Of a stretch of 64,000 nucleotides of DNA, positions 1 through 48,457 are shown piece after piece. The stretch lies in the NCBI GenBank assembly GCA_964490395.1, contig CAZBAS010000002.1:18566-82565 (forward strand), in the 5' to 3' direction. Under the pieces are notes generated by a model, which searched no databases, was not told the DNA's origin, and worked only from the letters and a program-made list of their open reading frames with translations. The DNA comes from an uncultured Candidatus Saccharibacteria bacterium (GTDB lineage: Bacteria; Patescibacteriota; Doudnabacteria; UBA920). Position numbers and translations under genes: made by a program. Position 1 is the first letter of the stretch; the number at the start of each line of letters is the position of its first letter.

Positions 1-668
1 ATTTTCTCTATGCGTCTACCTTTTATACCATTGCTTTAGCTGTGTGGCTCGCGAACATACGCCGCAGCGCAGTTGCATATACCCTCTTGGCCATATATGT
101 ACTTTGTAACCTAGGTGCGTTTGTACACTACTGGCAAGATCTTAAGGTAACCGAAAAGCCAGGTATGAATGCAGCAGTGCACTATTTGCAAAGCCACGCC
201 CGACCAACCGACTACCTTATTGCCGGAACAAGTTTTGAATTCTTTAATTTAAAATATTACCTTACGCAAGTTCCTGCGCCCACAGGACAAACTGCAGCCC
301 CGCTCACTATGGCCTCTAAGGGGTTCTCACTTGAAGACTTAAGCGATGACGCGTCCCGCCCCGCGCCGGACGCCCCGCAAACAATTCAGTACTGGCCAAA
401 ACCCGTACTGTTCACAGGCGGCTCAACTTCCGTACACGACCTCCCTCACTTTGCCGGCACTGCAATTTTAACGGACGAAGACCTACTCCCCCATTTCGAG
501 GACAATGCCAAAACGGGAGAGACAGCCTGGCTAGTATGGACCAATGCCTTTGGCTCGAATAAACCAACCGTGCCAGCGAACTGGAAACAGCTGGACGAAG
601 CAGGTTTTGCTGAAGTCAGACCGTACGTTGGCACCTGGATTGTGGTGACGAAATACGAAGTGCAGTAA
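1..668 (+). CDS. Partial membrane glycosyltransferase-like protein (GT39/ArnT-like C-terminal periplasmic region); the 5' end lies outside the window.
   Basis: The open frame runs from window base 3 with no stop before 668. It has a hydrophobic N-terminal segment followed by a soluble domain. Only weak family resemblance; the next feature (683..719) is a hairpin terminator. Confidence 0.35.
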   Translation, partial: FLYASTFYTIALAVWLANIRRSAVAYTLLAIYVLCNLGAFVHYWQDLKVTEKPGMNAAVHYLQSHARPTDYLIAGTSFEFFNLKYYLTQVPAPTGQTAAPLTMASKGFSLEDLSDDASRPAPDAPQTIQYWPKPVLFTGGSTSVHDLPHFAGTAILTDEDLLPHFEDNAKTGETAWLVWTNAFGSNKPTVPANWKQLDEAGFAEVRPYVGTWIVVTKYEVQ

Positions 669-682
669 TACAATATCAAAAT

Positions 683-719
683 AAGACTGTAGATTTGTTT
701 TAAAGAAATCTACAGTCTT
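683..719. terminator. Bidirectional rho-independent terminator between convergent genes.
   Basis: Perfect 14-bp stem AAGACTGTAGATTT / AAATCTACAGTCTT with a 9-nt loop. It is followed by a T/A-run (ATTAATTATAATAAAAAAAA) and sits between the + gene ending at 668 and the - gene ending at 790. Confidence 0.7.
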
Positions 720-789
720 ATTAATTATAATAAAAAAAATGCGGCGAACCTTTGCTCGACGCATTTGAAATGCCTTACCCTGGCCGCAA

Positions 790-1188
790 TCAGAAGAAAT
801 TTTCAAAGACCCACCCGATTCCCATTGATCCTTGGATAGTAACCCAGATAATCAATGCGAATGTCGCAGCACTATCTGTGGCCATAAAGACCGGTGACCA
901 CCGGCCTTCAAACCACCGTTTCCAAAAGCTCACTTGGGTTGGAAAAAGACTATCTAATTCTCGTCTAATTTCTCCGACCAGTACCCAGAGCCATTTAATT
1001 ATGCCCAAAAGCAGAGCGGCCAAGGCCGAAAGGCTTGTGACTGGGCCAATGACCATATTGCTCCAACGAGCCCCAATATATGTGGGGGGCTGAGTTAATG
1101 AGTAAATAGCGAGGGCCACTAGCACCCAGAAGTACCATCTGGTAAGCAACCAGCGGATTTCAACTTCACCCGTAACTGGCATTGTCAT
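790..1188 (-). CDS. Hypothetical small integral membrane protein (3 predicted TM helices).
   Basis: 132-aa ORF with a GGGAGG Shine-Dalgarno 8 nt upstream of the ATG at 1188 and hydrophobic helices (WYFWVLVALAIYSL, LSALAALLLGIIKWLWVLVG). Preferred over the overlapping + ORF 752..1093, which has no SD or domain. Confidence 0.45.
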   Translation of the reverse strand: MTMPVTGEVEIRWLLTRWYFWVLVALAIYSLTQPPTYIGARWSNMVIGPVTSLSALAALLLGIIKWLWVLVGEIRRELDSLFPTQVSFWKRWFEGRWSPVFMATDSAATFALIIWVTIQGSMGIGWVFENFF

Positions 1189-1403
1189 AGGATTTCCTCC
1201 CCGAAATATGATAAAACTCTATGCAGAATAACATATTTCATTAGCTAAGTCAATATTTATCACTGTTAATATTGACAAACCTATAAATAATATGTATAAT
1301 ATAGAGTCTTATTTTAGCCATATCAGTGGCAGGATCTGGCCGCATATAACCATCAGGCATATGTGAGAATATAAGATTTAACAATAATTCGAAGTAAAGA
1401 TTT

Positions 1404-3110
1404 ATGTCACTCAAAACCATTATTCGTTCATACAAGCTCCTTACGCTCATAGTGAGCATAGCAGCTATAAGCGGCGCTACGTTCTACTGGACCAGCGCTC
1501 GCGCTACAGTAGACACTACTGCATTGCCCGACGGTACTGCAGGCCAAGCCTACTCATTTAAAATACAAGCAAGCGGCGGAAGCCAGCCCTATGAATTCGA
1601 AAAGTGGTACAACACGTACCCTGGCACTGAAATGACACTAAAGGCCGATGGGACTTTTTCTGGTACCCCAACTCAGGCAGGCACATGGGAACTGGGTATT
1701 CGCGTTACCGATGGGACCGGTCTTGGTGTATACAAAATACTTCCTTGGAAAGTAGTTAGCACCAGCACTACCACTGGCACCATCCGCATAGATGGTATAC
1801 AGGGATACAACCAGAACACTCAGCAATACAACAATACCGTTGCCACGCCAGATACCTATGTAGTGCTCTATGGCGCATTTGCGAGCAGCGGGAACCAGCT
1901 TGTTTCTACTGGCACCGTAAGTGGTACCATAGACTTTGAAAGCACTTCCCAAATAAACGTAAAACTTTCGAGTGGTACTGGTATTGCTACGTTTGCCATA
2001 CGCGCTAACGGCGTAGTTTCAAACAGCAAGAGCATAGGCGTTGGCACTGCTATCTCTACCACAACCAGCACACTTGCCATAAGTCCAGACACAACACTAG
2101 TTACTGGCGCTATCCCCGCTGGCGCGCCGCGTTACATTTTCGCTGCGTTCAAACTGCAAACAGGTAGCGCTCCCGTAACCATCACTTCCATTCGTGTAGT
2201 TTCTGAAACAAGCAGTACCAACCAGATCCGAAACATTATAGTTTCTAAAGATGGAAATGCAATTACCTCTAGTGTTGCCACCCTTACCAATTCCGATATA
2301 CCACTTTCCGCTGCGCTCACCATACCAGCAAATAGCACCGTCACTTTGGAAATAAGCGCTATAACCAATGACCAAGCAACTGGCCAGGTTCGTCTGGGCA
2401 TAGGCAGCATGCAGTTCAGCGGCACAGCACCTACCATAACCCCAGCCTTGCCTATCTACGGCCCTGTAGTGCCCATTGTAGCGGCTCCAACCCCTACCCC
2501 AGTCCCGGTCTCTGGTCAAATACTAGTTTCTACTAGTCCGGTAGCATGTACCGCTACCACCAGCACGGTATCTATAACAGTTACCGGTACAAATGGCACA
2601 CTCTATACCATTCGCCGCAACAACGAAACCTTTGCTACCATAACTGGCTCTGGCAGCGTGCAAGATACCATTTCTGTTGGCACTACAAAGAGCTACAGCT
2701 TGTTTGCAGGTAGCCAGCAAGTTGGTACTACTCAAACTATAATTGGTACACGCCAAGCTGGTTGTACTACCACCACTGGCGACCGATACGTACGTGTAGC
2801 AGGCGACCCAACTGTATACTGGGTTACCCCATGGAATGCTAAAATGCCAATTCTATCTGCGGAAGTATTTTACTCATACGGCAGTAAGTGGGAACAAGTG
2901 CAAATTATATCCCAGGAAGCGCTCGATGATATAGACGATGTAGAGTATATTAAACTCAAAGGCAACGCACGGGTATACAAAATAGACGGCGCAGTAAAAC
3001 GCTACGTCTCCCCTGCTGCAGCGCAGCGCCTAAACATAGACCCTGCAAAAGTAGTCACCGTAAACGAAACAGAGTTCTACTCCTACCGCACTGGCAAGAG
3101 CATACAATAG
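1404..3110 (+). CDS. Secreted or cell-surface protein with Ig-like/beta-rich repeats and a Pro/Thr linker.
   Basis: N-terminal signal peptide/TM (LLTLIVSIAAISGATF), Thr/Ser/Gly-rich beta-repeat composition and a PTPTPVPV linker. AT-rich promoter region upstream (1200-1400); hairpin terminator at 3149..3175. Confidence 0.6.
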   Translation: MSLKTIIRSYKLLTLIVSIAAISGATFYWTSARATVDTTALPDGTAGQAYSFKIQASGGSQPYEFEKWYNTYPGTEMTLKADGTFSGTPTQAGTWELGIRVTDGTGLGVYKILPWKVVSTSTTTGTIRIDGIQGYNQNTQQYNNTVATPDTYVVLYGAFASSGNQLVSTGTVSGTIDFESTSQINVKLSSGTGIATFAIRANGVVSNSKSIGVGTAISTTTSTLAISPDTTLVTGAIPAGAPRYIFAAFKLQTGSAPVTITSIRVVSETSSTNQIRNIIVSKDGNAITSSVATLTNSDIPLSAALTIPANSTVTLEISAITNDQATGQVRLGIGSMQFSGTAPTITPALPIYGPVVPIVAAPTPTPVPVSGQILVSTSPVACTATTSTVSITVTGTNGTLYTIRRNNETFATITGSGSVQDTISVGTTKSYSLFAGSQQVGTTQTIIGTRQAGCTTTTGDRYVRVAGDPTVYWVTPWNAKMPILSAEVFYSYGSKWEQVQIISQEALDDIDDVEYIKLKGNARVYKIDGAVKRYVSPAAAQRLNIDPAKVVTVNETEFYSYRTGKSIQ

Positions 3111-3148
3111 AAAAGAAGTTGCTAACTGCTAGTTATTAGCTTCTAGCA

Positions 3149-3175
3149 TAAAGCCCCGCAAGGGGCTTTTTTATT
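3149..3175 (+). terminator. Rho-independent terminator.
   Basis: AAAGCCCC GCAA GGGGCTTTTTTATT: an 8-bp GC-rich stem with a tetraloop followed by a T-run. Confidence 0.75.
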
Positions 3176-3221
3176 ATAGAAACATGCACGTTGTTTCTGT
3201 TGAGAATACCAATGTTAACCC

Positions 3222-3333
3222 TCTGTCATCCTCGCGTATGCGGGGATCCATATCGGCCCATTAGCCGATAACAGGATTGTTGTTTCGTTGCCCCCGGTGC
3301 GGGGGTGAATTCCCGCCTTCGCGGGAATGACAG
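3222..3333. repeat. About 110-nt GC-rich palindromic repeat element (MITE/REP-like) with terminal inverted repeats CTGTCAT...ATGACAG; copy 1.
   Basis: Contains the hairpins CTGTCATCCTCGCG-TAT-GCGGGGATCC, CCCCCGG-TG-CGGGGG and GAATTCCCGC-CTTC-GCGGGAATGACAG. The outer arms are mutually complementary and it is homologous to 30885..31035 in inverted orientation. It produces the classic spurious '...IPAKAGIH...' ORFs (3215..3403). Confidence 0.6.
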
Positions 3334-3588
3334 ACAAAAAATTGATATTAGAAATAAATGCGTTGACTCGCATGGCTAGAAACCGTAAACTGCATAAGCT
3401 CAAAAATCAAAATACGAAAGGAGGGCCTTACATGAAAAGCCCTGACAATTTCTTTGTAAGATTAGTTTGTATATTATTTATACTCCTAATCATCAAACTT
3501 CTATGGTTCGGCAACTAACTCCCCCACGCCGAACTTTTTTATTTGGGCAAAATGAAAACGGTAGTTGGCAGTCCTACCGCATATTGAA

Positions 3589-3729
3589 CTACAATGACCC
3601 GCATATGGCCAGTGCTGTTAGGACAAGTGCCGTGACAGCGGCACCAACTCCCAGCAGCACTATCATCTTACCCCCAGTACCACTTTGCCAGAGGGACACT
3701 TCGTCATTATTGTTGTTATGGTAACCCAT
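3589..3729 (-). CDS. Possible small membrane protein (46 aa, MGYHNNNNDEVSLWQSGTGGKMIVLLGVGAAVTALVLTALAICGSL).
   Basis: Strong SD (GAGGGGG) 4 nt upstream of the ATG and a single C-terminal TM helix. It lies immediately downstream of another small TM ORF (3741..3926) whose TGA overlaps the region. Confidence 0.3.
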   Translation of the reverse strand: MGYHNNNNDEVSLWQSGTGGKMIVLLGVGAAVTALVLTALAICGSL

Positions 3730-3740
3730 TCTTCCCCCTC

Positions 3741-3926
3741 TCATCTTTTGAAAGTAGCGACCGCAAAGATCACTACAAGTTGAACGAATAAGAATGCCAC
3801 GACTAGCAAACTCGCACATAGCGCAATTTGCTGGCCATCGGACAATCTCATACATCGCCGCATTAGGAGGTAGCAGCTCCTCAATATGCGACGTCCTTCC
3901 AAATTCGCATACAAGCCACCTCCCAA
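3741..3926 (-). CDS. Possible small membrane protein (TTG/ATG start uncertain).
   Basis: C-terminal hydrophobic helix (ALCASLLVVAFLFVQLVVIFAVATF) and a tandem arrangement with 3589..3729. No homology recognised. Confidence 0.2.
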   Translation of the reverse strand: MGGGLYANLEGRRILRSCYLLMRRCMRLSDGQQIALCASLLVVAFLFVQLVVIFAVATFKR

Positions 3927-4096
3927 TTGTTATGCTACACTTTGATAACCAAAAGCCGGATTGCGCATGCGTTCCGGCTTTTGTTTGATGTAAGTATAGC
4001 TATTAAATACCACTACAGCAACTAACCATGGGCACCATTGTAGCCGCTACAATGGTGCCCATGGTTTATGGGTTTAATGGCCTTACTCACGCCTCA

Positions 4097-4540
4097 TTAC
4101 TCATCCCTCACGCCTGTATTTAGCACCGCCTCTAGCGCCACCAACGCGTGGTCTGCGTCTAGGCCTATAATTTGTGATACAACCTGGGTGCGAATATTTG
4201 CATCAAAACTTTCAGCGCTGACTTTTTTAAGATGTTCAACAATGGCCTTGTCTATAACATGCGCTCGAATACTTACCCGGCGGAGCTCATCCCGCACAGC
4301 TTCCATATAGCGCGCCTCACCCCTTACAACAGTTTGCAAACCCATAGCGCACCCGTGCTCATCTAGTAAAGGTTTCTGTAACTGCGCATCGCGCTCCTGA
4401 AGCTGCTTCATAACCCACTCAGCTACATCTGGCACTTCATGAATAGGAACAATGGATAGCCCCAGCTCACCCAAAACAACATACCCCAGCAGCTGCCACT
4501 CTGTATTAAAAATTCCAATAACTTCTTCTTTCATAGCCAT
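4097..4540 (-). CDS. Hypothetical cytoplasmic protein.
   Basis: 147 aa from ATG (MAMKEEVIGIF...) with GGGAGGGG upstream. No family recognised. The palindromic motif AATACTAGACAGTATTCTAGTA lies about 90 nt upstream. Confidence 0.45.
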   Translation of the reverse strand: MAMKEEVIGIFNTEWQLLGYVVLGELGLSIVPIHEVPDVAEWVMKQLQERDAQLQKPLLDEHGCAMGLQTVVRGEARYMEAVRDELRRVSIRAHVIDKAIVEHLKKVSAESFDANIRTQVVSQIIGLDADHALVALEAVLNTGVRDE

Positions 4541-4687
4541 AACTATACCCAAATTTCCCCTCCCGCACAACCATCAAATATCATAATTAAATAAACCGTG
4601 AAGCATTTTATACCGCCCATTCCTTACCGTAATACTAGACAGTATTCTAGTAGAAGAAAAGAGATGTATTCTCTTAAATATAAAAAA

Positions 4688-4770
4688 ACACGGGCCTACA
4701 CATGCAGTCTGAGTCTATATCGTTGTAAGTGATATAGTCCCATACTACACGGTAGGCCCGCTGCTTATCG
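4688..4770 (-). terminator. Rho-independent terminator of the deacetylase gene.
   Basis: On the - strand: CGGGCCTAC...(nested GACTATATC/GATATAGAC)...GTAGGCCCG followed by TGTTTTTTTA. Confidence 0.6.
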
Positions 4771-4777
4771 CAAAAAG

Positions 4778-6313
4778 TTAGTTGCCCGTACGGCGCGGAG
4801 GACCGCCCCGATCACCGATAGGAGGCCTCCCAGGATTTACCTGCCGCCCCGGAACCGGATGTTGGAAGCCCTGAAACATATCTGGCCTGTCTCCATACTC
4901 TGACATGAACTCGTCATTGTTTAAGACCGGCAAACCCCAAAATTCGATATCGCGCATCAGGAACTCGAAATTCTGTTCTGATGTGCTATAGGGGTCACTT
5001 GGGTCGTCACAAATATTGTGTATGAGCCACGCAGTACACACCTTGTCCTGCGCGCTCCACATATTCATCATGTGGATTTTGTCCGGAGTCATATCACGTG
5101 TCAATGCACGAACTTTGATGCGCCACGGATGTGTACCGCGGCCATTTCCCCCATCGCTGGCATCTCTTTGAGTGTCAAAGAAGCAACCAGCAAGATAGTG
5201 CAAAAACGCGTTCAAATTACCCGACCCAAAAGGAAACGCCATATGATAGATTGGCGGCCCATCTGGCAGATTACAGTTCAGGATTTTGTCCGAGGTATCG
5301 AACTCCCAATTGATCCGTGCTATAGGATCTTTGAGATCTGGCAGCGGGATGTCATACTTGTGCGACACCCATGTGGCTGCTGCGAGCCACTCCGCATATT
5401 CGGCCTGCGTTTCAGATCCATTCAAAATCTTAGACATATCGGGGTGGGTAACCGTGTGGCTTCCAATATTCCCGCCGTCATTATAGATCTCGGCCAAGTC
5501 CGCCCACGAAATTCCACCGGGTTCGTTTGGGTTGCTAACCCAATCAATCCGGGGGAAAACATTCGCACGCCATTTACGAGGCTTCATGTACTTCCGGTAC
5601 ATGACGGGCTGTGAAGCATAACCATCATCGAAATGAATGGCGACACTTCCGCGCACGCGTTGATACTCCTTTACACTAACAGATTGAACTTCAACCGTTC
5701 CCACTGCGCGGATAAGACCAATAAAGATGTGGGCCTGCACGACTGGCTGCGGCACCTGAAATGCTTCCAGATGCACACTGATCTCGTGCCAGTCTGTGCT
5801 CTGAGTCGGATAGTTTGGATAATCAACAATCCATGCAGTCGTACCATCGGCCAAATCTAGTTTGACCTGCATGGTCAGACCCAAGTGCGGACTGTTTGGC
5901 CCATTTGGAGCGTCAGCCGGCGTGTCTTTGACCGGTCCAATTGATCGAACCGAGGCAGTAAAAGTCGTTGGGACGCCGATAGGCTGGTTGAGCACCAGGG
6001 TCTCATATGTTCCGGCGATATACAACTGACTATCAGCCTTAATCGAGAGAACACTTCCGCCGCCCGGCTTAGCTATTCTTGTGTAGCCGCCCCAGCCACC
6101 CCACGTTGGGAAGCCGTGTTGCCAATTCTGCGCCTCGGCACTGCTTGCGCCTGCCTGGGAAAAGTTGCCGTTAATGATCCGCTCGACGCCAGGTAAATAG
6201 CCTGGTGTCGGCTGTTGCTGCGCTGCTACCTTGTGTTGCATGCTGGGCGCGACCATACATGCGAGAAAAAGCAATGCCAGCGTGGCAAAGCCTACTAACT
6301 TTCTACGAGACAT
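4778..6313 (-). CDS. Secreted polysaccharide deacetylase (NodB/CE4 domain) with an N-terminal carbohydrate-binding-like domain.
   Basis: AGGAGG 6 nt upstream of the ATG (MSRRKLVGFATLALLFLAC... signal peptide). CE4 motifs HFDDGY and HTVTHPDM. The N-terminal domain resembles the CBM of 8955..10193 and 6662..7387. Confidence 0.7.
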   Translation of the reverse strand: MSRRKLVGFATLALLFLACMVAPSMQHKVAAQQQPTPGYLPGVERIINGNFSQAGASSAEAQNWQHGFPTWGGWGGYTRIAKPGGGSVLSIKADSQLYIAGTYETLVLNQPIGVPTTFTASVRSIGPVKDTPADAPNGPNSPHLGLTMQVKLDLADGTTAWIVDYPNYPTQSTDWHEISVHLEAFQVPQPVVQAHIFIGLIRAVGTVEVQSVSVKEYQRVRGSVAIHFDDGYASQPVMYRKYMKPRKWRANVFPRIDWVSNPNEPGGISWADLAEIYNDGGNIGSHTVTHPDMSKILNGSETQAEYAEWLAAATWVSHKYDIPLPDLKDPIARINWEFDTSDKILNCNLPDGPPIYHMAFPFGSGNLNAFLHYLAGCFFDTQRDASDGGNGRGTHPWRIKVRALTRDMTPDKIHMMNMWSAQDKVCTAWLIHNICDDPSDPYSTSEQNFEFLMRDIEFWGLPVLNNDEFMSEYGDRPDMFQGFQHPVPGRQVNPGRPPIGDRGGPPRRTGN

Positions 6314-6615
6314 AATTGTCCTCCTGCGTAAACATTGATGTAACAATTCTGCATTTTCCGCTCGATTCGAATCGAGATTTGCATGCTGTAAGCGGAAATG
6401 CCAGGGAGTTACGGTAACCCTGATCTGACTTCAGAAAATTTTGATCATTCCTGAAAAGACCAATAACTATAACATAAAATGCCATTTTTGGGAATACCCA
6501 GCATATATATTATTCCCCATTCTTAAGGGGTGTTTAGCTTCATTTTTACTTGACCATCAGCTCTCTTCCGGAATACTAGACAGTATTCTAGTAAAAATAT
6601 TGCCAATAGATAAAC

Positions 6616-6642
6616 AAAAAAGCACCCGGTGAGGGTGCTTTT
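6616..6642 (-). terminator. Rho-independent terminator (for the CBM gene on the - strand).
   Basis: AAGCACCC-GGTGA-GGGTGCTT with TTTTTTGTTT on the - strand. Confidence 0.65.
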
Positions 6643-6661
6643 GAGAGTTGTTTAGATAGAG

Positions 6662-7387
6662 CTAGCGAGGGCAGAGCCAGCGGAATGGGATTATGCAGCC
6701 GCGAGGTGGGATTGGAGTAGGTGTTGGCGTTGGTGCTGGAGCTACGTAGTCAGACATCATGGCTTCGGTTGCATCGGTGGTAGCTACTTCTTTTACGTTG
6801 AGGTCATCAAAGTAAGCGGTACCACTTGCGCGAATAATAGATGGTACTACAAATACATAATCTATGGGAGCGGAAATAAGGCTGCCAAGCTGAGCAGTGT
6901 TGAACCCTATCCACTTCCAGTCAAAGGTACCGGAGTTTGCAGTGGTGTTCCAGTATACTACCTGGCCATTGCGCAGGTGAATTTCTGCATACAAGGAAGC
7001 GCCAAAGTATGAACCAGGAGCCATGGTAACGTTCTCACCTTTTACGTACGCGCCAAGAAATACTGGCTCAATAGTTGTTTGGTTAAAATCTACGCGCTGG
7101 AAAGCACCTGCCATGCTGGCAGTAGATGTGCTTACCATTTTAGCGCCATACCAACCGGTATTTGGGCGACCAGCATACACTACACGAGTGTATCCAGTGC
7201 CAAAATTCTGCCAGTTATAGGCTTTGTCTGGCATACCCTGCTCAGAGCCATTCTCGTCCCAATATATACCTTCCTGCTCGAAACCAGCAGCAGAAAGTTG
7301 GTTACCAGCGGCATCTGTCTGCCCAATTGGCATAACTGCCCATACCAGCGTAAACGCGGTAACAAGTACTAAAATCTTCTTAAACAT
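6662..7387 (-). CDS. Secreted standalone carbohydrate-binding module protein (paralog of the N-domain of 8955..10193).
   Basis: Start at MFKKILVLVTAF (signal peptide). DKAYNWQNFGTGYTRV ... NSGTFDWKWIGFNT ... AYFDD matches DKAYDWQDFGGGYTRV ... NSGTFDWRWVGFNT ... AWFDD of the deacetylase at 8955..10193. It ends with a PTPTPTP linker. Confidence 0.6.
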   Translation of the reverse strand: MFKKILVLVTAFTLVWAVMPIGQTDAAGNQLSAAGFEQEGIYWDENGSEQGMPDKAYNWQNFGTGYTRVVYAGRPNTGWYGAKMVSTSTASMAGAFQRVDFNQTTIEPVFLGAYVKGENVTMAPGSYFGASLYAEIHLRNGQVVYWNTTANSGTFDWKWIGFNTAQLGSLISAPIDYVFVVPSIIRASGTAYFDDLNVKEVATTDATEAMMSDYVAPAPTPTPTPIPPRGCIIPFRWLCPR

Positions 7388-7618
7388 AATGTATCTGTAT
7401 TCTGCCTTTGCTAGGAAGTTAGCGACATAGCTATCTGAAATATCTCTAGATTGCTTTACTTCGCAGACTCGCTCGCAATGACAGTATGTATTGATTAATG
7501 TAAGCGACCCTGCATTGTAATGATAAATCCCCTTTTTGGCAAGTCTATAAAAAAAACCTCGCTGCAACGAAGATTCCACATATCTGTATGTGAAAATCAA
7601 CGCTGCAGCGATATTGCG

Positions 7619-7870
7619 CTACTGCGCGAATGGCCACCACCTAGCAAAGAAGGCGACGACCAAATATACGGCGACCAGTACCACTATCACCAGAACACGC
7701 GATGTCGGCTTAGCTGCCCCTGGACAAGCATGATTCCAGGAGTGGCCAATACAACATTTCAGCCCGCACTGATCGCAAATTGAATGAAAATCATTAGGAC
7801 AGGTGCCCGACCCGTCCTCGTACACATATTTGCAAGTCCCACCTTGAGCCGCTGGTCGGTTAGTCGCCAC
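7619..7870 (-). CDS. Small Cys-rich protein with a C-terminal membrane anchor.
   Basis: GGAGGT SD before a GTG start; 10 Cys in about 60 aa (CKYVYEDGSGTCPNDFHSICDQCGLKCCIGHSWNHAC) followed by a TM helix (VLVIVVLVAVYLVVAFF). Terminator hairpin plus T-run at about 7551-7605. Confidence 0.4.
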   Translation of the reverse strand: MATNRPAAQGGTCKYVYEDGSGTCPNDFHSICDQCGLKCCIGHSWNHACPGAAKPTSRVLVIVVLVAVYLVVAFFARWWPFAQ

Positions 7871-8079
7871 TATAATTACCTCCAAAAAAGTTTAGTTTGA
7901 TGTTAATAAAATCGGCAACTTTGTAGAGCATTGCCGACAGGAGTTAAAATTGTTTTTATTTCCAATTAGCAATACTATAACATATATACTTACTTTTGTA
8001 AAGGGTGATATGTAACCCGCTAAGATTGGCATCCTGCGATTGCTGGGGCACCAGACAGACCAAATTTACACACTGCATA

Positions 8080-8110
8080 CAAAAAACACTCCGGGATAGG
8101 AGTGTTTTTA
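8080..8110. terminator. Bidirectional terminator.
   Basis: AACACTCC-GGGATA-GGAGTGTT flanked by A-run/T-run. Confidence 0.6.
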
Positions 8111-8138
8111 AGTCTGGAAATCTTTTTTCTATGATGGA

Positions 8139-8897
8139 CTATTTCAAACCAAAGCTTGCGAGGAGCTTACCTGAGTAGTCGGTAATGTAGTACACGCGGT
8201 TGCCGCGCACAACGGCTAGGGCGGGTGCACCATCGAGCATATAGCGGAAGGCAAAGTAGCCTTGGAAGGTAATGTTTTCAAGCTTAGTAATGTTTGGGCT
8301 CAAAGCGAGCTGCTTGCCTAAGTCAGAAGGATCGTCCAGTAATAAATCTGCAACCTCTACCCGTGCGAGCAATGCATTTGCGCTGCTGCGGAACTCAACC
8401 ACTCGGTTGCCTTCTGCACCAGAGTTTACGGTAGTGCGCGCAGGCAACGTTATGCTAAAACCAGAAGCATCGGTATACACACGACTTGCGATTGTAGTGG
8501 TAGCGCCGAGTACAGTAGGAGCTGGAGTTGGAGCAGGCTTAGTAGCCACGGGCTTTGCAGGCTCAGTAACTACGTTTGGAGAGTCTGTGCTGGTGCTAGA
8601 TGTACGTGGAGCAGGTTCTGTAGCGCTTGGAGCTATAGATGGCGCCACTGCCACTGGAGAGCTTAACTGGGGCTCTACGGGGGCCTTAGCAACCTTTATA
8701 CCAGTACCCAGCTGCGGCCAGTGTCCATATACCACGTAGCCAAGTGCAAATGTAGCCACCAGCAAAATACACACAGTCACAATGCTACTGCGCACGCCAG
8801 AATCCTTGCTCGGTTGAACCGGGCTGACTATTTCCTCTATGGACATATTACCTGGATTCTCTTGGGGAGGGACCAGATTGCGTGGAAGGTCGGACAT
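8139..8897 (-). CDS. Membrane-anchored protein with a Pro/Thr/Ala-rich linker and a C-terminal globular domain.
   Basis: N-terminal TM (IVTVCILLVATFALGYVVY), low-complexity PAPT linker and a C-terminal domain. No family recognised. Confidence 0.5.
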   Translation of the reverse strand: MSDLPRNLVPPQENPGNMSIEEIVSPVQPSKDSGVRSSIVTVCILLVATFALGYVVYGHWPQLGTGIKVAKAPVEPQLSSPVAVAPSIAPSATEPAPRTSSTSTDSPNVVTEPAKPVATKPAPTPAPTVLGATTTIASRVYTDASGFSITLPARTTVNSGAEGNRVVEFRSSANALLARVEVADLLLDDPSDLGKQLALSPNITKLENITFQGYFAFRYMLDGAPALAVVRGNRVYYITDYSGKLLASFGLK

Positions 8898-8954
8898 ATA
8901 AGCGAAGCGCAGAATTAAGAAGTATGAATTACGAATTATGAATGAAGGCCAACA

Positions 8955-10193
8955 CTATCGGGCAACACCAAACTGCTGAAGGGCGTCGCTGTAGGTTTTT
9001 ACTGGTACACCACTTGCAGAAATGGACTGAAGAATTTGCTTAAACTGTGCCACTGGAGTGTGATAAATATCGTCACCAGTATTTGCTATATCGTGGAATA
9101 CAAACACTTCCCAGCGCTTTTGTGCCTGCGCCTCAGCGAGCCAGTTCTGAATGTCTGCCATGGTAGTCTGGGTAGTTATACCACGTACCTTTACGTCGTA
9201 TGGGAATGTTCCTTGTGGGTTACTCCCCTGTTCAAAGTTACGCATGGTCGTGTAATACTTCGCACCCTCACCCAAAATGTATGCGTTATACGCACCATAC
9301 GGAGTAGCAAACAGTTTTGGGCTCCACTTTGCTAGCGCAGCTTTGGAAGCTTCTAGCTCGGTTACAGCTTGAGCAGGAGTAATAGTGGTCATGTCTGTGT
9401 GGTTTACACTGTGAGACGCAATTTCCCAACCACTGGTGTAGAGTGCTTGTATTTGAGTACTCGTCATGTAGGTGGTGTCTTGGTCAGTGTAGCTGGTAAT
9501 AATACCGCTCACACCCTTGAAGCCATACACATCCATAGCTGGTTTTGCAGCGGTGAATGTGTTCGCTGGACCATCGTCGAACATAAGCGTTACTGCTGCT
9601 TGTGTTGGCTCAAAATCCGCTACAGTAACATCGTCAAACCAAGCAGTACCGCTGGCGTTGATAAGTGCAGGTACTACAAAAATATAATCTATAGGTCCGT
9701 TTATAAAAGAAACGCTTCCCGTGTTAAACCCAACCCAGCGCCAATCAAACGTACCAGAGTTTGCGATGGTGTTCCAGTACAGCGTACGGCCATCCATCAT
9801 GTGAATTTCTGCGTAGATGGACGCGCCAAAATATGAACCATTTACCATGTTCACATTGCTGCCCTTTACGTAGGCGCCAATGAACACTGGTTTCTGTACA
9901 GACTGGTGAAAGTCTACGCGCTGGTATCCACCAGCCATGGCATTCTGGGTAGCGTTCTGGAGCCGCATACTAAACTGACCAGTGTGGCCACCCGCAACAC
10001 GAGTATAGCCTCCGCCAAAATCCTGCCAGTCATATGCCTTGTCAGCACCGTTGCCAACCTGCTCAAATCCGCCATCGTTTAAGGGGTCAAGCATAGCAGC
10101 CTGGGCTGTGCGTGAAAACGAAGCAAGCGACAGCACCAGAAGGGCTACAACGAGCAAAACCTGCAATTTCTTTATCATGTTTTTAGAGCTCAT
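8955..10193 (-). CDS. Secreted polysaccharide deacetylase (CE4/NodB) with an N-terminal CBM.
   Basis: Signal peptide (LQVLLVVALLVLSLASFS); CE4 motifs MFDDGP and HSVNHTDM; N-terminal CBM paralogous to 6662..7387. Confidence 0.75.
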   Translation of the reverse strand: MSSKNMIKKLQVLLVVALLVLSLASFSRTAQAAMLDPLNDGGFEQVGNGADKAYDWQDFGGGYTRVAGGHTGQFSMRLQNATQNAMAGGYQRVDFHQSVQKPVFIGAYVKGSNVNMVNGSYFGASIYAEIHMMDGRTLYWNTIANSGTFDWRWVGFNTGSVSFINGPIDYIFVVPALINASGTAWFDDVTVADFEPTQAAVTLMFDDGPANTFTAAKPAMDVYGFKGVSGIITSYTDQDTTYMTSTQIQALYTSGWEIASHSVNHTDMTTITPAQAVTELEASKAALAKWSPKLFATPYGAYNAYILGEGAKYYTTMRNFEQGSNPQGTFPYDVKVRGITTQTTMADIQNWLAEAQAQKRWEVFVFHDIANTGDDIYHTPVAQFKQILQSISASGVPVKTYSDALQQFGVAR

Positions 10194-10262
10194 AAATTGT
10201 TATATAACAGACTATTATAGGATAAAAGGCATGTAGTGGCAAATGGAAGTTTGGGCGAAAAC

Positions 10263-11603
10263 CTAGGCACTAGTAGTAATAGTTCGCCGCGTGGGAGACA
10301 CCCAGGCACCTGTGGATTGGACCAAAAAGGTTCGCGGAAACGCCATAAGGAAGGTCCAGGCATCTATGTATTTCATAAAGAGAAACCCAAATCCGTACCA
10401 CAAGTACTGGGGCCTTCTAAATAGTATGGCTATAATAACCGACACTGCGTAGTCTATGGCAAAAAGCAACAACAGCCCTTTGAGTATGTTGTATTCTTGC
10501 GTAAACATGGTGTACAAGTCGTATACCCACGGGCTTACGTGACCAGCACCAAGGGCCGCAACCACTCCAATGAATACGAGTATTGCGGGAAGTAGTATAA
10601 GGCTGATGGTAGAAAGGAGTACTTCAGCAGAATACAAGAGTAGTGCTGCAGAAAATAAGCTCGGCCAAAACCCGTGACGCTTAAGTGTTTGCCAGTACCC
10701 TAGGTGCCAGCGGCGTACCTGCTTGTAGTAATCTCTGAGGTTATCTGGATCTTGTGTATTTCCATAGACACGAGGGTCCATAATAATTTTACCTAAGCGC
10801 TTACGGTGCACCTCAAAGGTCATGTTGTAATCTTCTATCACGAGTCCCCTCGCAGCTATATCTATGCGCGGTAAAATGCTTGCTCGGTATAAACTACAAA
10901 ACCCAGGAATAATAGGTGTTACAGACACGCCAAGCCAAGCCTGCGCATATTTAATAAGATACTGCACCAGAATGTACACACGTTCTCTGTGGGCCAGCAC
11001 AAACATGTTCCAAAAACCAGTGGTTGCTGGCTCCCATAGTGTTTTAGCAAAACCCGCCACTGCGGCTACGCGATCATCTTCCAGATAGGGCAAGGCATAG
11101 TCTAGATAGGTGGGACTAATGATAGTATCGGCATCTACAAACAGTACCCCTGCATAGCGCTGAGCAAGCTCAAAATGGTCTATGCCTTTTTTAAGCGCAC
11201 CTGCTTTACCAGAGTTTTCTGGCTCTAGCACATTCACGCCAAAACTTCGGGCTATGTCTGCGGTCTTGTCTTTAGACCCATCGGAGATGATGTAGATATT
11301 TTGCGGCGGCACTAGCACGAGGAGAGACCGTATAGACTTGGCTATAACCAATTCTTCGTTGTAGGCGGCCATGATAATAGCAACATCATGTTTGGTGAGG
11401 GTGCGCGTAGTAGAACGCTGAGGGACCAAACCTTTCACGGTAATTCGCAGGCCAGGAATGCGCGCAACTATTTCTACAAAAAATCGCACAACACCTATAC
11501 TTCCCCAAATGAGCAGGTTAAAACCGACAAGCGTAATAAGCTCATATATAAATGAGCTTGAATGAAACGGTACAAGTTTTACGAAAAAATCTAAACTAGG
11601 CAT
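10263..11603 (-). CDS. Family 2 processive glycosyltransferase (PgaC/cellulose/chitin-synthase-like) with N- and C-terminal TM segments.
   Basis: GT2 motifs: DVAIIMAAYNEE (DXD region), VLFVDADT and the Q/RxxRW-like RRWHLGYWQ. Multiple TM helices. Overlaps the upstream UXS gene by 8 nt (operon). Confidence 0.8.
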   Translation of the reverse strand: MPSLDFFVKLVPFHSSSFIYELITLVGFNLLIWGSIGVVRFFVEIVARIPGLRITVKGLVPQRSTTRTLTKHDVAIIMAAYNEELVIAKSIRSLLVLVPPQNIYIISDGSKDKTADIARSFGVNVLEPENSGKAGALKKGIDHFELAQRYAGVLFVDADTIISPTYLDYALPYLEDDRVAAVAGFAKTLWEPATTGFWNMFVLAHRERVYILVQYLIKYAQAWLGVSVTPIIPGFCSLYRASILPRIDIAARGLVIEDYNMTFEVHRKRLGKIIMDPRVYGNTQDPDNLRDYYKQVRRWHLGYWQTLKRHGFWPSLFSAALLLYSAEVLLSTISLILLPAILVFIGVVAALGAGHVSPWVYDLYTMFTQEYNILKGLLLLFAIDYAVSVIIAILFRRPQYLWYGFGFLFMKYIDAWTFLMAFPRTFLVQSTGAWVSPTRRTITTSA

Positions 11604-12555
11604 TTACCAGTCGAATTTTAAAATGTGCAATGGTGCGTGCCAAACCTTCTTCCAAACCTACGCTTGGTTTCCAGCCAAGGTTACGCACTTTGGTTGTATC
11701 GGGCAAGCGGCCAGAATGGTCGTGCGCCGGTCGCGGAACTGACACTATAGTACTTTGTGAACCAGTAAGTGCAAGTACCTGCTCAGCGAATGTTTTTATG
11801 GTAACTTGGTCAGTACCACCAACATTATAAGCTTCACCAGCAACACCATGCTCCATTACCAGTTCTACGCCGCTAATAACATCGTCTACATAGCAAAAGG
11901 TTCGGTTCTGAGACCCTTCACCTTGTATGGTTAAAGACTCACCGAGCAATGCTTGGCGAATGAATGTAGAAATAACGCGAGTATCACGGAGCACGTAGTT
12001 AGGACCATACGCATTAAAGAAACGCACTATTTTTCCGTCTACGCCGTACTTTTGCACGTAGAGACGAACATAGCTTTCTGCAACACGTTTTCCTTCTTCG
12101 TACGGAGCACGAAACCCAAGCGGGTCTACGTTGCCAGTGTACGTTTCGTTTTGCGGACTCACCTCTGGTTCGCCGTAGACTTCGGCAGAACTTGCGTGGA
12201 AAAACTTTGCCTTGTGCATGCGAGCGAGGTTAAGCAGATTGCGCACACCAAGCGTGCATGTGTCGAGCATAAGTTCGCCAAGTTTATCTGGTGCAATGTT
12301 TGGTACACCAGTAGGACAGGCAAAGTCGTATATGCGGTCAAAGGTATATGTTTTACCTAAGAATGCAACAAGTTCTGTATTACAAATATCCCCTTCTATA
12401 AATGTGAAGGACGCGTTCTGTTCTAGCGCCTGGATATTTTCAATTTCTCCCGTAATTAGGTTGTCTATTGCGACAACTGTGTGACCCTGGTTTAAAAAAT
12501 AGGCAGCAAAATTTGAGCCTAAGAAACCTGCACCCCCAGCTATAAGAATGTTCAT
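11596..12555 (-). CDS. UDP-glucuronate decarboxylase (UDP-xylose synthase)-like NAD-dependent epimerase/dehydratase.
   Basis: GGAGFLGS Rossmann motif and SSAEVYGEPEVSPQNETY...YEEGKR, characteristic of UXS-type SDR enzymes. Confidence 0.75.
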   Translation of the reverse strand: MNILIAGGAGFLGSNFAAYFLNQGHTVVAIDNLITGEIENIQALEQNASFTFIEGDICNTELVAFLGKTYTFDRIYDFACPTGVPNIAPDKLGELMLDTCTLGVRNLLNLARMHKAKFFHASSAEVYGEPEVSPQNETYTGNVDPLGFRAPYEEGKRVAESYVRLYVQKYGVDGKIVRFFNAYGPNYVLRDTRVISTFIRQALLGESLTIQGEGSQNRTFCYVDDVISGVELVMEHGVAGEAYNVGGTDQVTIKTFAEQVLALTGSQSTIVSVPRPAHDHSGRLPDTTKVRNLGWKPSVGLEEGLARTIAHFKIRLVNA

Positions 12556-12611
12556 AAAATCAGCATTAAAATGAATGACCGAGTATTATACTGAGTTTTA
12601 CAGAAAAAAGC

Positions 12612-12745
12612 AAGGGCCCCATGGTAAATCCATGTAAACATATAAGCATATAAGCATTTAAACAAAAGAGGGACCCCACAGAACGTCTAAATTCTGTTTG
12701 TTTACATGTTTAAATGCTTATATGTTTTAATGTTTACAAAAACCA
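12612..12745. repeat. Long AT-rich imperfect inverted repeat (arms about 30 nt: ...GTAAACATATAAGCATATAAGCATTTAAACAAA / TTTGTTTACATGTTTAAATGCTTATATGTTT).
   Basis: Direct read of the sequence; the arms are reverse complements separated by a loop of about 30 nt. It lies between the UXS start and the small basic ORF. Confidence 0.6.
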
Positions 12746-12799
12746 AAAACCGCCTAACAAGTAGGACGGTTTTAGGTAACTCTTGCGAGTAAGGAAGGA

Positions 12800-12883
12800 T
12801 TAAAGGCGCTTCTTCGAAGCCTTCTTTGTTGCCTTCTTTGCAACCTTTTTCTTGGCTGCTTTTTTGGTGGCTTTCTTTGCCAT
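12800..12883 (-). CDS. Possible tiny Lys/Ala-rich basic protein (MAKKATKKAAKKKVAKKATKKASKKRL).
   Basis: 27-aa ORF (34 aa from the upstream ATG) with GGGAGA 9 nt upstream. Followed on the - strand by a hairpin plus T-run terminator (12745-12775), and a large AT-rich region lies upstream. Histone H1-like composition; not in the ORF track (<60 aa). Confidence 0.3.
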   Translation of the reverse strand: MAKKATKKAAKKKVAKKATKKASKKRL

Positions 12884-13375
12884 TTTGCTAGTCTCCCGAG
12901 GCATAGACTGATTTTGGTCCATGCTCTTTAATTTTCTACTGCGCGTAAAAATGCGCTAGTAGCAACAGATAATTTCTTTCGGTGTTTCTTTCTAGTACAA
13001 GATATTCTTTGGTGTGGCGTGTTGCTCACACCAACCTTCGATATTTTATTTCAATCAAAGGTAGGATTTCTATTTCTATACTTCTACATGTTATAAAGAG
13101 TGGTAAGTTATTTTTGAAAAATATTTTTCAAATTTTTTCTCGCTCTTTATTTTTTGTAGGTGTCAATGTGCTTACATTAAAAATTATCGCGAAAAAAGTT
13201 TATTGTGTCAAGATACTACTGTTGATAACTTTTTTATAAAAAATATTTTCTACTTAATAAAAATATACAAAAATATATTTTGCAAAATATTTTTTCACTC
13301 GCACACAGTATAAAAGTAATTTGTGAGAATAATATGGCAAGATACGATACCATGTAACATATGGCATGTAACGAG

Positions 13376-15500: not shown

Positions 15501-16595
15501 CTACTGCCCTTCCAACGCTATCTTCCCTGCCGTTATTTCACTCAACTCGGTTGTAATCTTATTTTGCCGCAGTTGGTTAAACGTAAGGGTTAAGTCTGCA
15601 ATTAAGTCTCCAGCACTTTCTGTTGCGTTCTTCATCATGATCATGCGGGCACTGTGTTCGGAGGCATCGCTTTCTAGCAGAGTCTGATAGAGCTGGCTTT
15701 CAAGAACTTTCGGAAGCAGGTGGCTGAGTACTTTTTCTGGAGATGGTTCTATGAGGTAGCCTGCTTGGTTCATACCACCCCTCGCCCCTCCTACCTTAGG
15801 AGGGGAACCGGAGGATACATCTGCGATTGAGGAACCACTATCGGCATTTTTTCCTCCCCTAACATAGGGGAGGCTAGGTGGGGTATCATTTTCGAGGCTC
15901 AGCGGCAACAGCTGCACTGTGCGTGCTTGTTGAGATAGTGTAGAAATAAAATGGTTATAGACTATATAAACGGAATTGTATTCCCCAGATATAAATGAGT
16001 CACTTATGAGACGCGCAACGGGAGCTATTTGGTCAATGGACGGGGTACTTTCGGACTTTGCAAAATCTGCCAGTACTCGGCGACGCATGCGTACAGCCAT
16101 GTCCATGGCTTTGCGACCCATAATAACGTACTCAAGGTTATCACGACCGTGCTGTTCCTCGAGTTTTTTAATCTGAACAAACAAGTTCGAGTTAAAACCG
16201 CCAACAAGTCCTTTATTTGTGGATATAACAACGACTAGTGCTTTTGTCGCAGAAGTGTTTGGTTGCATAAGAGCTGCGTAGTTCGTACCCTCTCTAACTC
16301 CCCCTACTCTAGGGGGAGAACCGGAAGAAACATCCGTGACGTAGGAACCACCCTCGGCATTTATTCCCCTCCTAGAATAGGAGGGGTTAAGGGCGGTAGG
16401 ATTCTCTGACGCCGATACCGTACCCCCCAAAGACCGCACCAAACTAAGCGCAAGCTCGCTATACGTGCGGCTGGCAACAGTTGCAGCCTGACTCTTGCGC
16501 ATTTTGGCAGCACTAATCATCTGCATAGCCCGCGTAACCTTGCGCGTGCTCTTGATAGATTTTATTCGGCGTGTGAGTTCTTGCGTACTTGGCAT
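15501..16595 (-). CDS. atpG: F1 ATP synthase gamma subunit carrying two in-frame insertions of about 35-40 aa derived from a palindromic repeat element.
   Basis: The conserved N-terminus (RRIKSIKSTRKVTRAMQMISAAKMRK) and C-terminus (SEHSARMIMMKNATESAGDLI...ELSEITAG) are present. It is 364 aa against about 290 typical. The extra segments ...SYVTDVSSGSPPRVGGVREG... and ...TPPSLPYVRGGKNADSGSSIADVSSGSPPKVGGARGG... are encoded by the repeat copies at 16299..16396 and 15785..15882. Confidence 0.85.
   Translation of the reverse strand: MPSTQELTRRIKSIKSTRKVTRAMQMISAAKMRKSQAATVASRTYSELALSLVRSLGGTVSASENPTALNPSYSRRGINAEGGSYVTDVSSGSPPRVGGVREGTNYAALMQPNTSATKALVVVISTNKGLVGGFNSNLFVQIKKLEEQHGRDNLEYVIMGRKAMDMAVRMRRRVLADFAKSESTPSIDQIAPVARLISDSFISGEYNSVYIVYNHFISTLSQQARTVQLLPLSLENDTPPSLPYVRGGKNADSGSSIADVSSGSPPKVGGARGGMNQAGYLIEPSPEKVLSHLLPKVLESQLYQTLLESDASEHSARMIMMKNATESAGDLIADLTLTFNQLRQNKITTELSEITAGKIALEGQ
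15785..15882. repeat. Hairpin-pair repeat element (RPE-like), copy A, inserted in-frame within atpG.
   Basis: CCCCTCCTA-CCT-TAGGAGGGG ... CCTCCCCTA-ACA-TAGGGGAGG-CTAGGTGGGG. It aligns with copy B at 16299..16396 and with the half copies at 20636..20675 and 36388..36425. Confidence 0.7.
16299..16396. repeat. Hairpin-pair repeat element (RPE-like), copy B, inserted in-frame within atpG.
   Basis: CTCCCCCTA-CTC-TAGGGGGAG ... CCCCTCCTA-GAA-TAGGAGGGG-TTAAGGGCGG. The shared core ...AACCGGA(G/A)GA(T/A)ACATC...GGAACCAC(T/C)(A/C)TCGGCATTT.. confirms homology with copy A. Confidence 0.7.
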
Positions 16596-48407: not shown

Positions 48408-48457
48408 ATATATTATAAAAAATACTAGACAGTATTAAAGTAAACTACATGCGTATA

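Follow-up and report, generated by a model that had tools for sequence, protein, structure and literature searches.

The DNA examined here is a stretch of 64,000 nucleotides (hereafter the window) from an uncultured Candidatus Saccharibacteria bacterium, contig CAZBAS010000002.1, and our subject is the cluster of seven minus-strand open reading frames (ORFs) that it carries at 4778..12555 (Table 1). At the head of this cluster, the gene for a UDP-xylose synthase (UXS)-like decarboxylase, named G, is coupled to the gene for a membrane-integrated glycosyltransferase family 2 (GT2) synthase, named F. Downstream of the pair are the genes for two secreted proteins, E and A, in which a domain resembling a carbohydrate-binding module (CBM) precedes a deacetylase domain of carbohydrate esterase family 4 (CE4). 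An initial annotation had described the region as an exopolysaccharide synthesis and modification locus analogous to those for poly-N-acetylglucosamine (PNAG) or chitosan. All of its ORFs are present on the minus strand at the positions it gave, and its general description is borne out by the processive-type GT2 and by CE4 domains with intact catalytic residues; the gene for D, which lies between E and the Cys-rich miniprotein C, was missing from its gene list.

Table 1. Genes and DNA elements of the locus, with positions in the window
Feature	Position	Strand	Remarks
G, UXS-like NAD-dependent UDP-uronate decarboxylase, 319 aa	11596..12555	-	First gene of the G-F operon; Pfam Epimerase
F, membrane-integrated processive GT2 synthase, 446 aa	10263..11603	-	PF13641, PF00535, PF13632 (Pfam)
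E, secreted CBM-like + CE4 deacetylase, 412 aa	8955..10193	-	CBM-like ~9615..10091, CE4 ~8979..9605
D, single-pass membrane protein, 252 aa	8139..8897	-	Pro/Thr/Ser-rich linker and C-terminal globular domain
C, tail-anchored Cys/His-rich miniprotein, 83 aa	7619..7870	-	Promoter-like site and terminator of its own
B, secreted stand-alone CBM-like protein, 241 aa	6662..7387	-	PT linker and short Cys-containing tail
A, second secreted CBM-like + CE4 protein, 511 aa	4778..6313	-	Polysacc_deac_1; hypervariable between strains
22-bp inverted-repeat motif, exact	6572..6593	-	3' of the B terminator, upstream of A; in gene orientation TACTAGAATACTGTCTAGTATT
22-bp motif, second exact copy	4631..4652	-	3' of the A terminator, upstream of a 157-aa ORF (4097..4570)
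22-bp motif, third copy, 2 mismatches	48421..48442	-	14 nt upstream of the def start codon, then TATAAT
Promoter-like CTTGCT-17-TATAAT	12585..12614	-	~30 nt ahead of the G start codon; conserved on alignment to L001, L003, and L004

The GT2 family of F is marked by residues that are invariant among 27 members, namely D112, K133, DAD (157-159), PGF, IEDxNMTF (256-263, with ED at 257-258), QxxRW (295-299) followed by LGxWQT, and a C-terminal GxWxSPxR. The QxxRW motif reads QVRRW in F itself. Escherichia coli PgaC is 25% identical to F with the same motifs aligned, and its end, RWVSPDRG, shares WVSPxR with F. An AlphaFold2 model of F (pLDDT 90.1, pTM 0.88) consists of a GT-A domain ringed by two N-terminal and four C-terminal long helices, which agrees with the hydropathy of the protein. 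When the full-length model was compared using Foldseek, the hyaluronan synthases (HAS) of a Chlorella virus (CvHAS) and of Xenopus (XlHAS1) were the best matches (TM-score 0.55-0.62), followed by BcsA and chitin synthases. The best NCBIfam model for F is PgaC_IcaA (TIGR03937), which is matched over its full length but with 85 bits against an equivalog cutoff of 422.3 bits. Taken together, the motifs, the fold matches, and this low score place F, as predicted from sequence and model, in the processive, channel-forming GT2 class and outside the PgaC/IcaA orthologs. The initial annotation had called F a membrane-embedded processive synthase, and neither the structure prediction nor the comparison with PgaC, BcsA, and chitin synthase moved it into a non-processive, single-sugar class. 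A small partner with two transmembrane (TM) helices like PgaD or IcaD is not evident among the locus ORFs, although D, which has a single TM helix and a large ectodomain, was not compared directly with PgaD.

The genes for G and F overlap by 8 nt (GTAAATGCCTAG, read directly), so the coupling of the two that had been annotated is confirmed. Such an arrangement has precedents. In the class I hyaluronan synthase operon hasA-hasB-hasC and the pneumococcal type 3 genes cps3D-cps3S, a single membrane GT2 both polymerizes and exports its product and is co-transcribed with a precursor enzyme. The present locus is alike in coupling its synthase to a nucleotide-sugar enzyme, and the F model matches HAS structures best in fold. 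It is unlike these systems in that F is only 14-18% identical to HAS, the precursor enzyme is a decarboxylase and not Ugd, and extracellular deacetylases are present.

G is an extended short-chain dehydrogenase/reductase (SDR; Pfam Epimerase, E-value 5e-51) whose best match in the PDB is human UXS1 (hUXS1; E-value 3e-65). Aligned to hUXS1 (4gll), G displays GGAGFLG, SSAEVYG, YEEGKRVAE, and GSQNRTF, with the catalytic S-x-E, YxxxK, and Arg residues all aligned. The label "UXS-like" given by the initial annotation therefore holds for the protein class and the catalytic residues, but G is divergent: its identity to hUXS1 by BLAST is 40% (225 bits), as compared to 60-62% (~400 bits) for plasmid-borne bacterial UXS. 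UXNAcS, a proven decarboxylase of UDP-N-acetylglucosaminuronic acid (UDP-GlcNAcA) from Bacillus cereus whose sequence we took from Additional file 1 of PMC5078965, is 38% identical to hUXS1 (186 bits) and likewise has hUXS1 as its best PDB match; therefore, sequence similarity alone does not fix the substrate. No NCBIfam equivalog cutoff is reached by G, with the ArnA model scoring 30 bits.

Genomic context provides more information on the likely substrate. We surveyed 80 loci encoding relatives of F (referred to as L001 and so on) from the Candidate Phyla Radiation (CPR), Proteobacteria, and Actinomycetota, each with 8-kb flanks. A decarboxylase-type SDR lies near the GT2 gene in 71 of the 80 loci (14/15 from CPR, 4/4 proteobacterial, one from an unclassified metagenome-assembled genome (MAG), and 52/59 actinobacterial), and it is directly adjacent, on the upstream side, in 12 of the 15 CPR loci. 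The CPR and proteobacterial SDRs are G-type, with 41-55% identity to G outside its closest relatives, and the actinobacterial ones are UXNAcS-type, with 38-44% identity to UXNAcS and 30-39% to G. A nucleotide-sugar 6-dehydrogenase accompanies the SDR-GT2 pair in 7/15 CPR, 1/4 proteobacterial, and 43/59 actinobacterial loci. Tight operons of dehydrogenase, G ortholog, and GT2, with gaps of ~90 nt or less or with overlaps, are found in L006, L008, L010, L011, L022, and L064, and the dehydrogenases of these operons score 234-338 bits with the proven B. cereus UDP-N-acetylglucosamine (UDP-GlcNAc) 6-dehydrogenase versus 52-92 bits, or no match, with E. coli Ugd. Four dehydrogenases that were scanned (including those of L008, L011, and L064) have an NCBIfam score profile that parallels that of the proven UDP-GlcNAc 6-dehydrogenase. 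G orthologs are in operon partnership with a gene of this type in L006, L007, L008, L010, L011, L022, L081, and L064, but not in the window or its closest relatives. A Ugd-type gene directly beside the SDR-GT2 pair was found in none of the 80 loci. Since the SDR and an N-acetylhexosamine (HexNAc)-type dehydrogenase recur together with no Ugd-type neighbor, the conserved module consists of a 6-dehydrogenase of the HexNAc type, a decarboxylase resembling UXS, and a processive GT2. Read in the simplest way, this module is a route from UDP-HexNAc through UDP-HexNAc-uronate and a UDP-2-acetamido-2-deoxy-pentose to a polymer. A decarboxylase beside the GT2 across three phyla, in combination with the HexNAc-type dehydrogenase, argues for a polymer that contains a pentose or aminopentose and against plain poly-GlcNAc. 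Our literature search found no description of the decarboxylase-GT2 module and no characterized member of the family.

CE4 genes are also a recurrent part of these neighborhoods. By tblastn, at least 8 of the 15 CPR loci have one next to the GT2 gene, with the CE4 domain of a large downstream protein in L010 confirmed by Pfam, and 26 of the 59 actinobacterial loci have one within 8 kb of it. In place of a CE4 gene, the Jiangella locus L013 encodes, at 6493..7974, a de-N-acetylase of the PIG-L family as well as a WbqC-like protein; such extra genes sit between the SDR and the GT2 or next to them. In the Herbiconiux locus L078, the segment 5214..7681 contains a gene for a Cap5O-like dehydrogenase that is divergently transcribed.

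In the window itself, E and A both begin with a hydrophobic, signal-like segment and both match Pfam Polysacc_deac_1 (E-value 1e-18 for E and 4e-9, a partial match, for A). The two proteins align end to end at 22% identity (E-value 4e-23), with a 36-residue insertion in the CE4 domain. CE4 motifs 1, 2, and 5 read FDDG, HSVNH, and FVFHD in E and FDDG, HTVTH, and LIHN in A, and the alignment thus retains the metal-binding and catalytic residues, including the catalytic Asp and His, that the designation of both as secreted deacetylases requires. The best PDB matches of E are the Streptomyces lividans acetylxylan esterase 2cc0 (E-value 1.7e-8) and 6dq3, with FDDG, HSxNH, and PYG aligned, and clostridial CE4 domains also rank among its best solved relatives; A has no matches in the PDB by sequence. 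The best NCBIfam match of E is HfsH, and no PgaB-like C-terminal hydrolase (GH153) domain was found in E using Pfam.

The N-terminal domains of E and A are paralogs of the stand-alone protein B, which is 51% identical to the first 160 residues of E (E-value 1e-65). The model of B is a beta-sandwich resembling the beta-jelly-roll of CBM4/16/22/61/70-type modules (core pLDDT 80-93) and matches CBM16, CBM70, and CBM22, so the CBM-like domains of the initial annotation stand as paralogs of B with a CBM-type fold by model. Neither B nor the N-terminal domains of E and A match a Pfam or NCBIfam family. The domain is rare: a profile built from the three copies in the window retrieved only 346 representative clusters among 1.84 billion proteins. 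A CE4 domain is present in 7 of the 10 closest relatives of the CBM-like domain that were examined, and the remoter relatives occur as repeats within large surface proteins, including one with SLH domains. The annotation of B as a paralogous CBM protein is correct in its paralogy and imprecise at its end, since the proline-threonine (PT) linker is followed by a 15-aa tail with two Cys residues. Each of E, B, and A has promoter-like sites and terminators of its own, as exemplified by TTGCCA-17-TATAAT at 10242..10214 upstream of E.

Comparison with close relatives shows which parts of the cluster are stable. The exact sequence of F has no record in public assemblies, and the comparison was made with relatives at 90% and 65% identity. 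Proteins on two ENA contigs and in a MAG labeled Candidatus Saccharibacteria share 90-91% identity with F, one in a Candidatus Doudnabacteria MAG shares 65%, and the Logan contig L084 is 99.4% identical to positions 1..7545 of the window. The gene order UXS-like, GT2, CE4 protein (412 aa), and D (252 aa) is retained in all close relatives, down to 65% GT2 identity. Next in these relatives comes the second CE4 protein and then a protein of 136-179 aa, with a secreted protein of 566-589 aa and a PMT_2 GT-C glycosyltransferase on the opposite strand. Among the relatives compared, gene B is restricted to the closest lineage. The mature part of protein A and that of the protein at the same place in L001 have only 29% identity, with the catalytic motifs still present; conserved between the two are the signal peptide, the ten C-terminal residues, and the DNA on either side (~80-83% identity). 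Similarity to L001 breaks inside the coding region, at about 4808 and 6232, and the segment 4808..6232 looks like the product of allelic replacement or of diversifying selection on a secreted enzyme.

Building on the enzyme classes, motifs, and folds, on the gene coupling, and on the linkage across phyla described above, we tentatively propose, with a confidence that falls somewhat short of even, that the cluster specifies a synthase-dependent route to a pentose-containing surface polymer, probably of the XylNAc/GlcNAc type (where XylNAc is 2-acetamido-2-deoxy-xylose), that is deacetylated outside the cell. In the first step, which would take place in the cytoplasm, G would oxidatively decarboxylate a UDP-hexuronic acid to a UDP-pentose. 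The context of the sister loci favors UDP-GlcNAcA as the substrate and UDP-XylNAc as the product, with conversion of UDP-glucuronic acid to UDP-xylose as the alternative. In the second step, F, which we infer to be supplied by G, would polymerize the UDP-pentose, possibly together with UDP-GlcNAc, and pass the chain through the transmembrane channel that its class provides. In the third step, the secreted E and A would dock on the polymer by their CBM-like beta-sandwich domains, and their metal-dependent CE4 domains would remove acetyl groups, which would alter the charge and solubility of the polymer.

The closest described chemistry is the UDP-XylNAc pathway of Bacillus cereus subsp. cytotoxis, which consists of UGlcNAcDH and UXNAcS (Gu et al. 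2010, as cited in PMC5078965). The related loci resemble this pathway in having a HexNAc-type 6-dehydrogenase followed by a UXS-like decarboxylase, with dehydrogenases that score best with UGlcNAcDH. There are several points, some of them concerning this same pathway, that weigh against the proposed XylNAc/GlcNAc-type polymer. G is somewhat closer to UXS (225 bits) than to UXNAcS (33% identity, 134 bits) and belongs to a UXS-like clade other than that of UXNAcS. A nucleotide-sugar dehydrogenase of any type is absent from the 64-kb window and also from the loci of the nearest relatives. The characterized B. cytotoxicus UGlcNAcDH-UXNAcS operon has no adjacent GT2 of the F family but only a 271-aa protein with no Pfam match. 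The sugar specificity of GT2 synthases is not readable from sequence or fold. As for the deacetylases, the motif-3 Arg of CE4 enzymes is replaced in both (FATPYG in E and AFPFG in A), the best solved CE4 relatives of E include acetylxylan esterases that remove O-acetyl groups, and the CE4 proteins could instead act on peptidoglycan or on a host glycan. With regard to motif 3, the solved polysaccharide deacetylase 6dq3 has IAYPSG at this position; therefore, the Arg is not universal among solved CE4-family members.

The first of these points also speaks for a different product, a polymer of xylose, which we consider unlikely. Here G would be a true, if divergent, UDP-xylose synthase that depends on a Ugd encoded elsewhere for its substrate, the product would be xylan-like or a co-polymer of xylose and GlcNAc, and the CE4 enzymes would act on GlcNAc or O-acetyl groups. 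Beyond the PDB match to hUXS1 and the fully aligned catalytic residues of G, the best solved relatives of the CE4 domain of E are the acetylxylan esterases 2cc0, 7ax7, and 2c71, and the fold matches of the CBM-like domain include CBM22, a family that binds xylan. However, the partner dehydrogenase of the SDR-GT2 pair, where there is one, is HexNAc-type and in 0/80 loci Ugd-type, the identity of G to hUXS1 is well below that of the plasmid-borne bacterial UXS orthologs, and neither the ORFs nor Pfam reveal an O-acetyltransferase in the locus that would make the substrate for an esterase. Known CE4 enzymes with CBMs, such as S. lividans AxeA and Clostridium thermocellum CtCE4, as well as 6dq3, are like E and A in being secreted metal-dependent CE4 proteins with DD/HxxxH/LxH motifs, and some of them combine a CBM with the CE4 domain. 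They differ from the locus proteins in that the CBM-like domain of the latter is rare and in no Pfam or CAZy-recognizable family, and the motif-3 Arg is missing, as it is in 6dq3.

The initial annotation favored a GlcNAc homopolymer that resembles PNAG, chitin, or chitosan and is partly de-N-acetylated by the CE4 enzymes, and the UXS-like gene would then serve another glycan. We find this quite improbable. The logic of the locus is PNAG-like: as in the pgaABCD genes of E. coli and the icaADBC genes of staphylococci, a processive GT2 with D, DxD, ED, QxxRW, and WVSPxR motifs is followed by an extracytoplasmic CE4 deacetylase, with the CE4 genes located 3' of the synthase as in pgaBC and icaAB. 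PgaC_IcaA is the best NCBIfam match of F over its full length, the C-terminal WVSPxR motif is common to F and PgaC, and UDP-GlcNAc is certainly available given the peptidoglycan genes in the window. The analogy is weak on membership and on the decarboxylase. With a quarter of its residues identical to PgaC and a PgaC_IcaA score far under the cutoff, F is not a member of the pga/ica family, and the locus has no evident PgaD/IcaD-type partner, PgaA porin, or PgaB hydrolase domain. The locus instead couples a UDP-uronate decarboxylase to the synthase, and its CE4 proteins carry CBM-like domains. It is hard to explain why a decarboxylase that feeds another pathway would be coupled to the GT2 and inherited together with it in three phyla, a linkage that the analogy with PNAG ignored.

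Just as doubtful, in our estimation, is the idea that the CBM-CE4 and CBM-only proteins have nothing to do with the product of F and act on peptidoglycan, in a self-protective role like that of PgdA or PplD, or on the surface glycans of a host, and that the synthase is their neighbor through the clustering of envelope genes. Actinomycetota are known to host Saccharibacteria, and CPR bacteria are often episymbionts. The separate promoter-like sites and terminators of E, B, and A fit this idea, as do the abundance of the GT2 family of F in Actinomycetota, the resemblance of E to the polysaccharide deacetylase 6dq3, and the extreme divergence of mature A between strains within well-conserved flanking DNA, which is typical of diversifying selection at an interaction surface. 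On the other hand, the adjacency of GT2 and CE4 genes recurs in independent CPR lineages, CE4 or PIG-L deacetylases are found near the actinobacterial GT2 genes, and the order GT2-CE4-D is retained at 65% identity.

An Arn-type reading is rejected because of the channel-forming synthase type of F, the secreted nature of the CE4 proteins, and the lack of an aminotransferase or formyltransferase in the locus. The likeness to the Arn pathway for modification of lipid A with 4-amino-4-deoxy-L-arabinose (the decarboxylase ArnA, the GT2 ArnC, the CE4-type deformylase ArnD, and the GT-C ArnT) is superficial and consists of a decarboxylase, a GT2, a CE4 protein, and a PMT_2/ArnT-like GT-C at 42..668; F has QxxRW and a six-helix channel and is not of the ArnC/DPMS type, and the ArnA model reaches only its 30 bits on G.

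Returning to the proposed pathway with its pentose-containing polymer, the F-G locus is a variant of the synthase-dependent exopolysaccharide pathways but represents a distinct family. It falls outside PgaC/IcaA and UXNAcS, and its membership in core UXS is doubtful. The exopolysaccharides made by such pathways, among them cellulose, PNAG, hyaluronan, and alginate, influence adhesion, biofilms, and interactions with hosts, and the known families each have a defined product. What emerges here is an uncharacterized synthase family that is nearly always found with a UDP-uronate decarboxylase in CPR bacteria, some Proteobacteria, and many cultivable Actinomycetota. A bolder and, in our view, unlikely version of the proposal is that the F family is the missing UDP-XylNAc polymerase. 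In conjunction with the HexNAc 6-dehydrogenase and the UXS-like decarboxylase, it would produce a chitin- or PNAG-like chain made partly or wholly of 2-acetamido-2-deoxy-xylose, CE4 enzymes would convert this chain to a polycationic xylosamine polymer, and the CBM-CE4 proteins may also recognize the same polymer on actinobacterial hosts. To our knowledge, no xylosamine/XylNAc-type biopolymer has been described. If the product were of this type, it would give UDP-XylNAc a biological role, of which our literature search found no report, and it would add a new cell-surface polymer to the poorly understood envelopes of CPR bacteria. If the product were plain PNAG or a polymer of xylose, the locus would be a routine envelope-glycan cluster. 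With homologs in Arthrobacter, Cryobacterium, Rhodococcus, and Jiangella, the nature of the product can be tested directly.

Two of the remaining proteins, D and B, are by their sequence features candidate accessory surface proteins, D being membrane-anchored with a long PT linker and B consisting of the CBM-like domain only. The lectin-like retention of the polymer that the initial annotation suggested for B is a conjecture. The TM helix of D spans residues 38-56. D is always located 3' of E in L001, L002, L004, and L084 (82-96% identity), and a 253-aa gene takes its position in the Doudnabacteria relative. Searches of Pfam and NCBIfam with B, C, D, and the further proteins labeled H and I gave no matches.

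The miniprotein C had been counted as part of the locus and described as a membrane-anchored protein with 10 Cys residues. The anchoring is supported, but there are 7 Cys residues, and C has no signal peptide and a C-terminal TM helix, so it is tail-anchored. This topology suggests that its Cys/His-rich domain is cytoplasmic and would bind Zn. The ORF (taken as 7619..7885) has no Pfam match, is preceded by a GGAGG Shine-Dalgarno sequence, and lies between a promoter-like site at 8002..7974 and a terminator at 7572..7557. C is 66% identical in amino acids to its homolog in L084 while the flanks are 99.4% identical in nucleotides, the segment 7388..8138 as a whole is 74% identical to L084 within DNA that is 96-99% identical, and C is missing from L001 and L004, where ~35 bp separate the stop of D from the start of B. 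C is therefore a strain-variable insertion, and its membership in the locus does not hold up. Both C and the 22-bp palindrome discussed next are outside the core of the pathway.

The palindromic 22-mer AATACTAGACAGTATTCTAGTA, which in gene orientation follows [T/C]ACTAGAATACTGTCTAGTATT, is exact at both of its positions in the locus, as had been reported, and is found a third time upstream of def, where the copy extends to 48442 and not to 48436; shuffled sequence contains no copies. The motif is situated ~25-30 nt past the terminators of B and A and its two orthologous copies are conserved in L001, L002, L004, and L084 (10205 and 11999 in L001, 12284 and 14089 in L004, 2873 and 4814 in L084), with adjoining intergenic DNA that differs. 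An exact 20-mer of it had no matches in JGI metagenome contigs. The motif looks like a putative operator or promoter-associated element. We rejected the notion that it is the recombination boundary of a variable A cassette, given that A ceases to resemble L001 within the coding region and not at the motif copies. Of the genes downstream of the motif copies, those for a CE4 deacetylase and for peptide deformylase encode metal-dependent hydrolases, and the remaining one encodes the 157-aa protein. That a metal-responsive regulator acts at the motif, as these hydrolase genes might hint, is pure speculation.

Another conserved element is the unit at 12700..13211 on the minus strand, between atpC and G, which travels with the UXS-GT2 pair in L001, L004, and L003 though the upstream neighbors differ. 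In it, a promoter-like sequence, TTGACA-17-GATAAT (13211..13183), precedes a leader of ~300 nt in which there are conserved blocks, and a hairpin at 13007..13036 has two compensatory changes. These are followed by a GGGAG Shine-Dalgarno sequence, a 27-aa Lys-rich ORF, MAKKATKKAAKKKVAKKATKKASKKRL (12800..12883), and a terminator-like hairpin (12745..12771). Rfam gave nothing credible for this unit, only spurious miRNA-like matches at permissive thresholds for the region upstream of the UXS-like gene, and only four tRNAs at gathering thresholds over the whole window.

At the other end of the cluster, the PMT_2/ArnT-like GT-C gene (plus strand, cut by the start of the window) and the gene for a 568-aa secreted protein (1404..3110, plus strand), which has no Pfam match, converge on the locus, and relatives with GT2 identity as low as 65% keep this pairing. 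Between the two, both the window and L084 encode a membrane protein of 132 aa (790..1188 of the window, minus strand). These three genes may be part of a larger envelope-glycan neighborhood. The window also contains type IV pilin and peptidoglycan genes and has ~46% GC, a content like that of CPR/Patescibacteria. Finally, the ATP synthase gamma subunit (15501..16595) is 364 aa long and has two similar inserts of ~25 aa (…SYVTDVSSGSPPRVGGVREG… and …SSIADVSSGSPPKVGGARGG…). Its Doudnabacteria homolog is a 316-aa protein on one contig and is divided between two genes (205 and 101 aa) on another.

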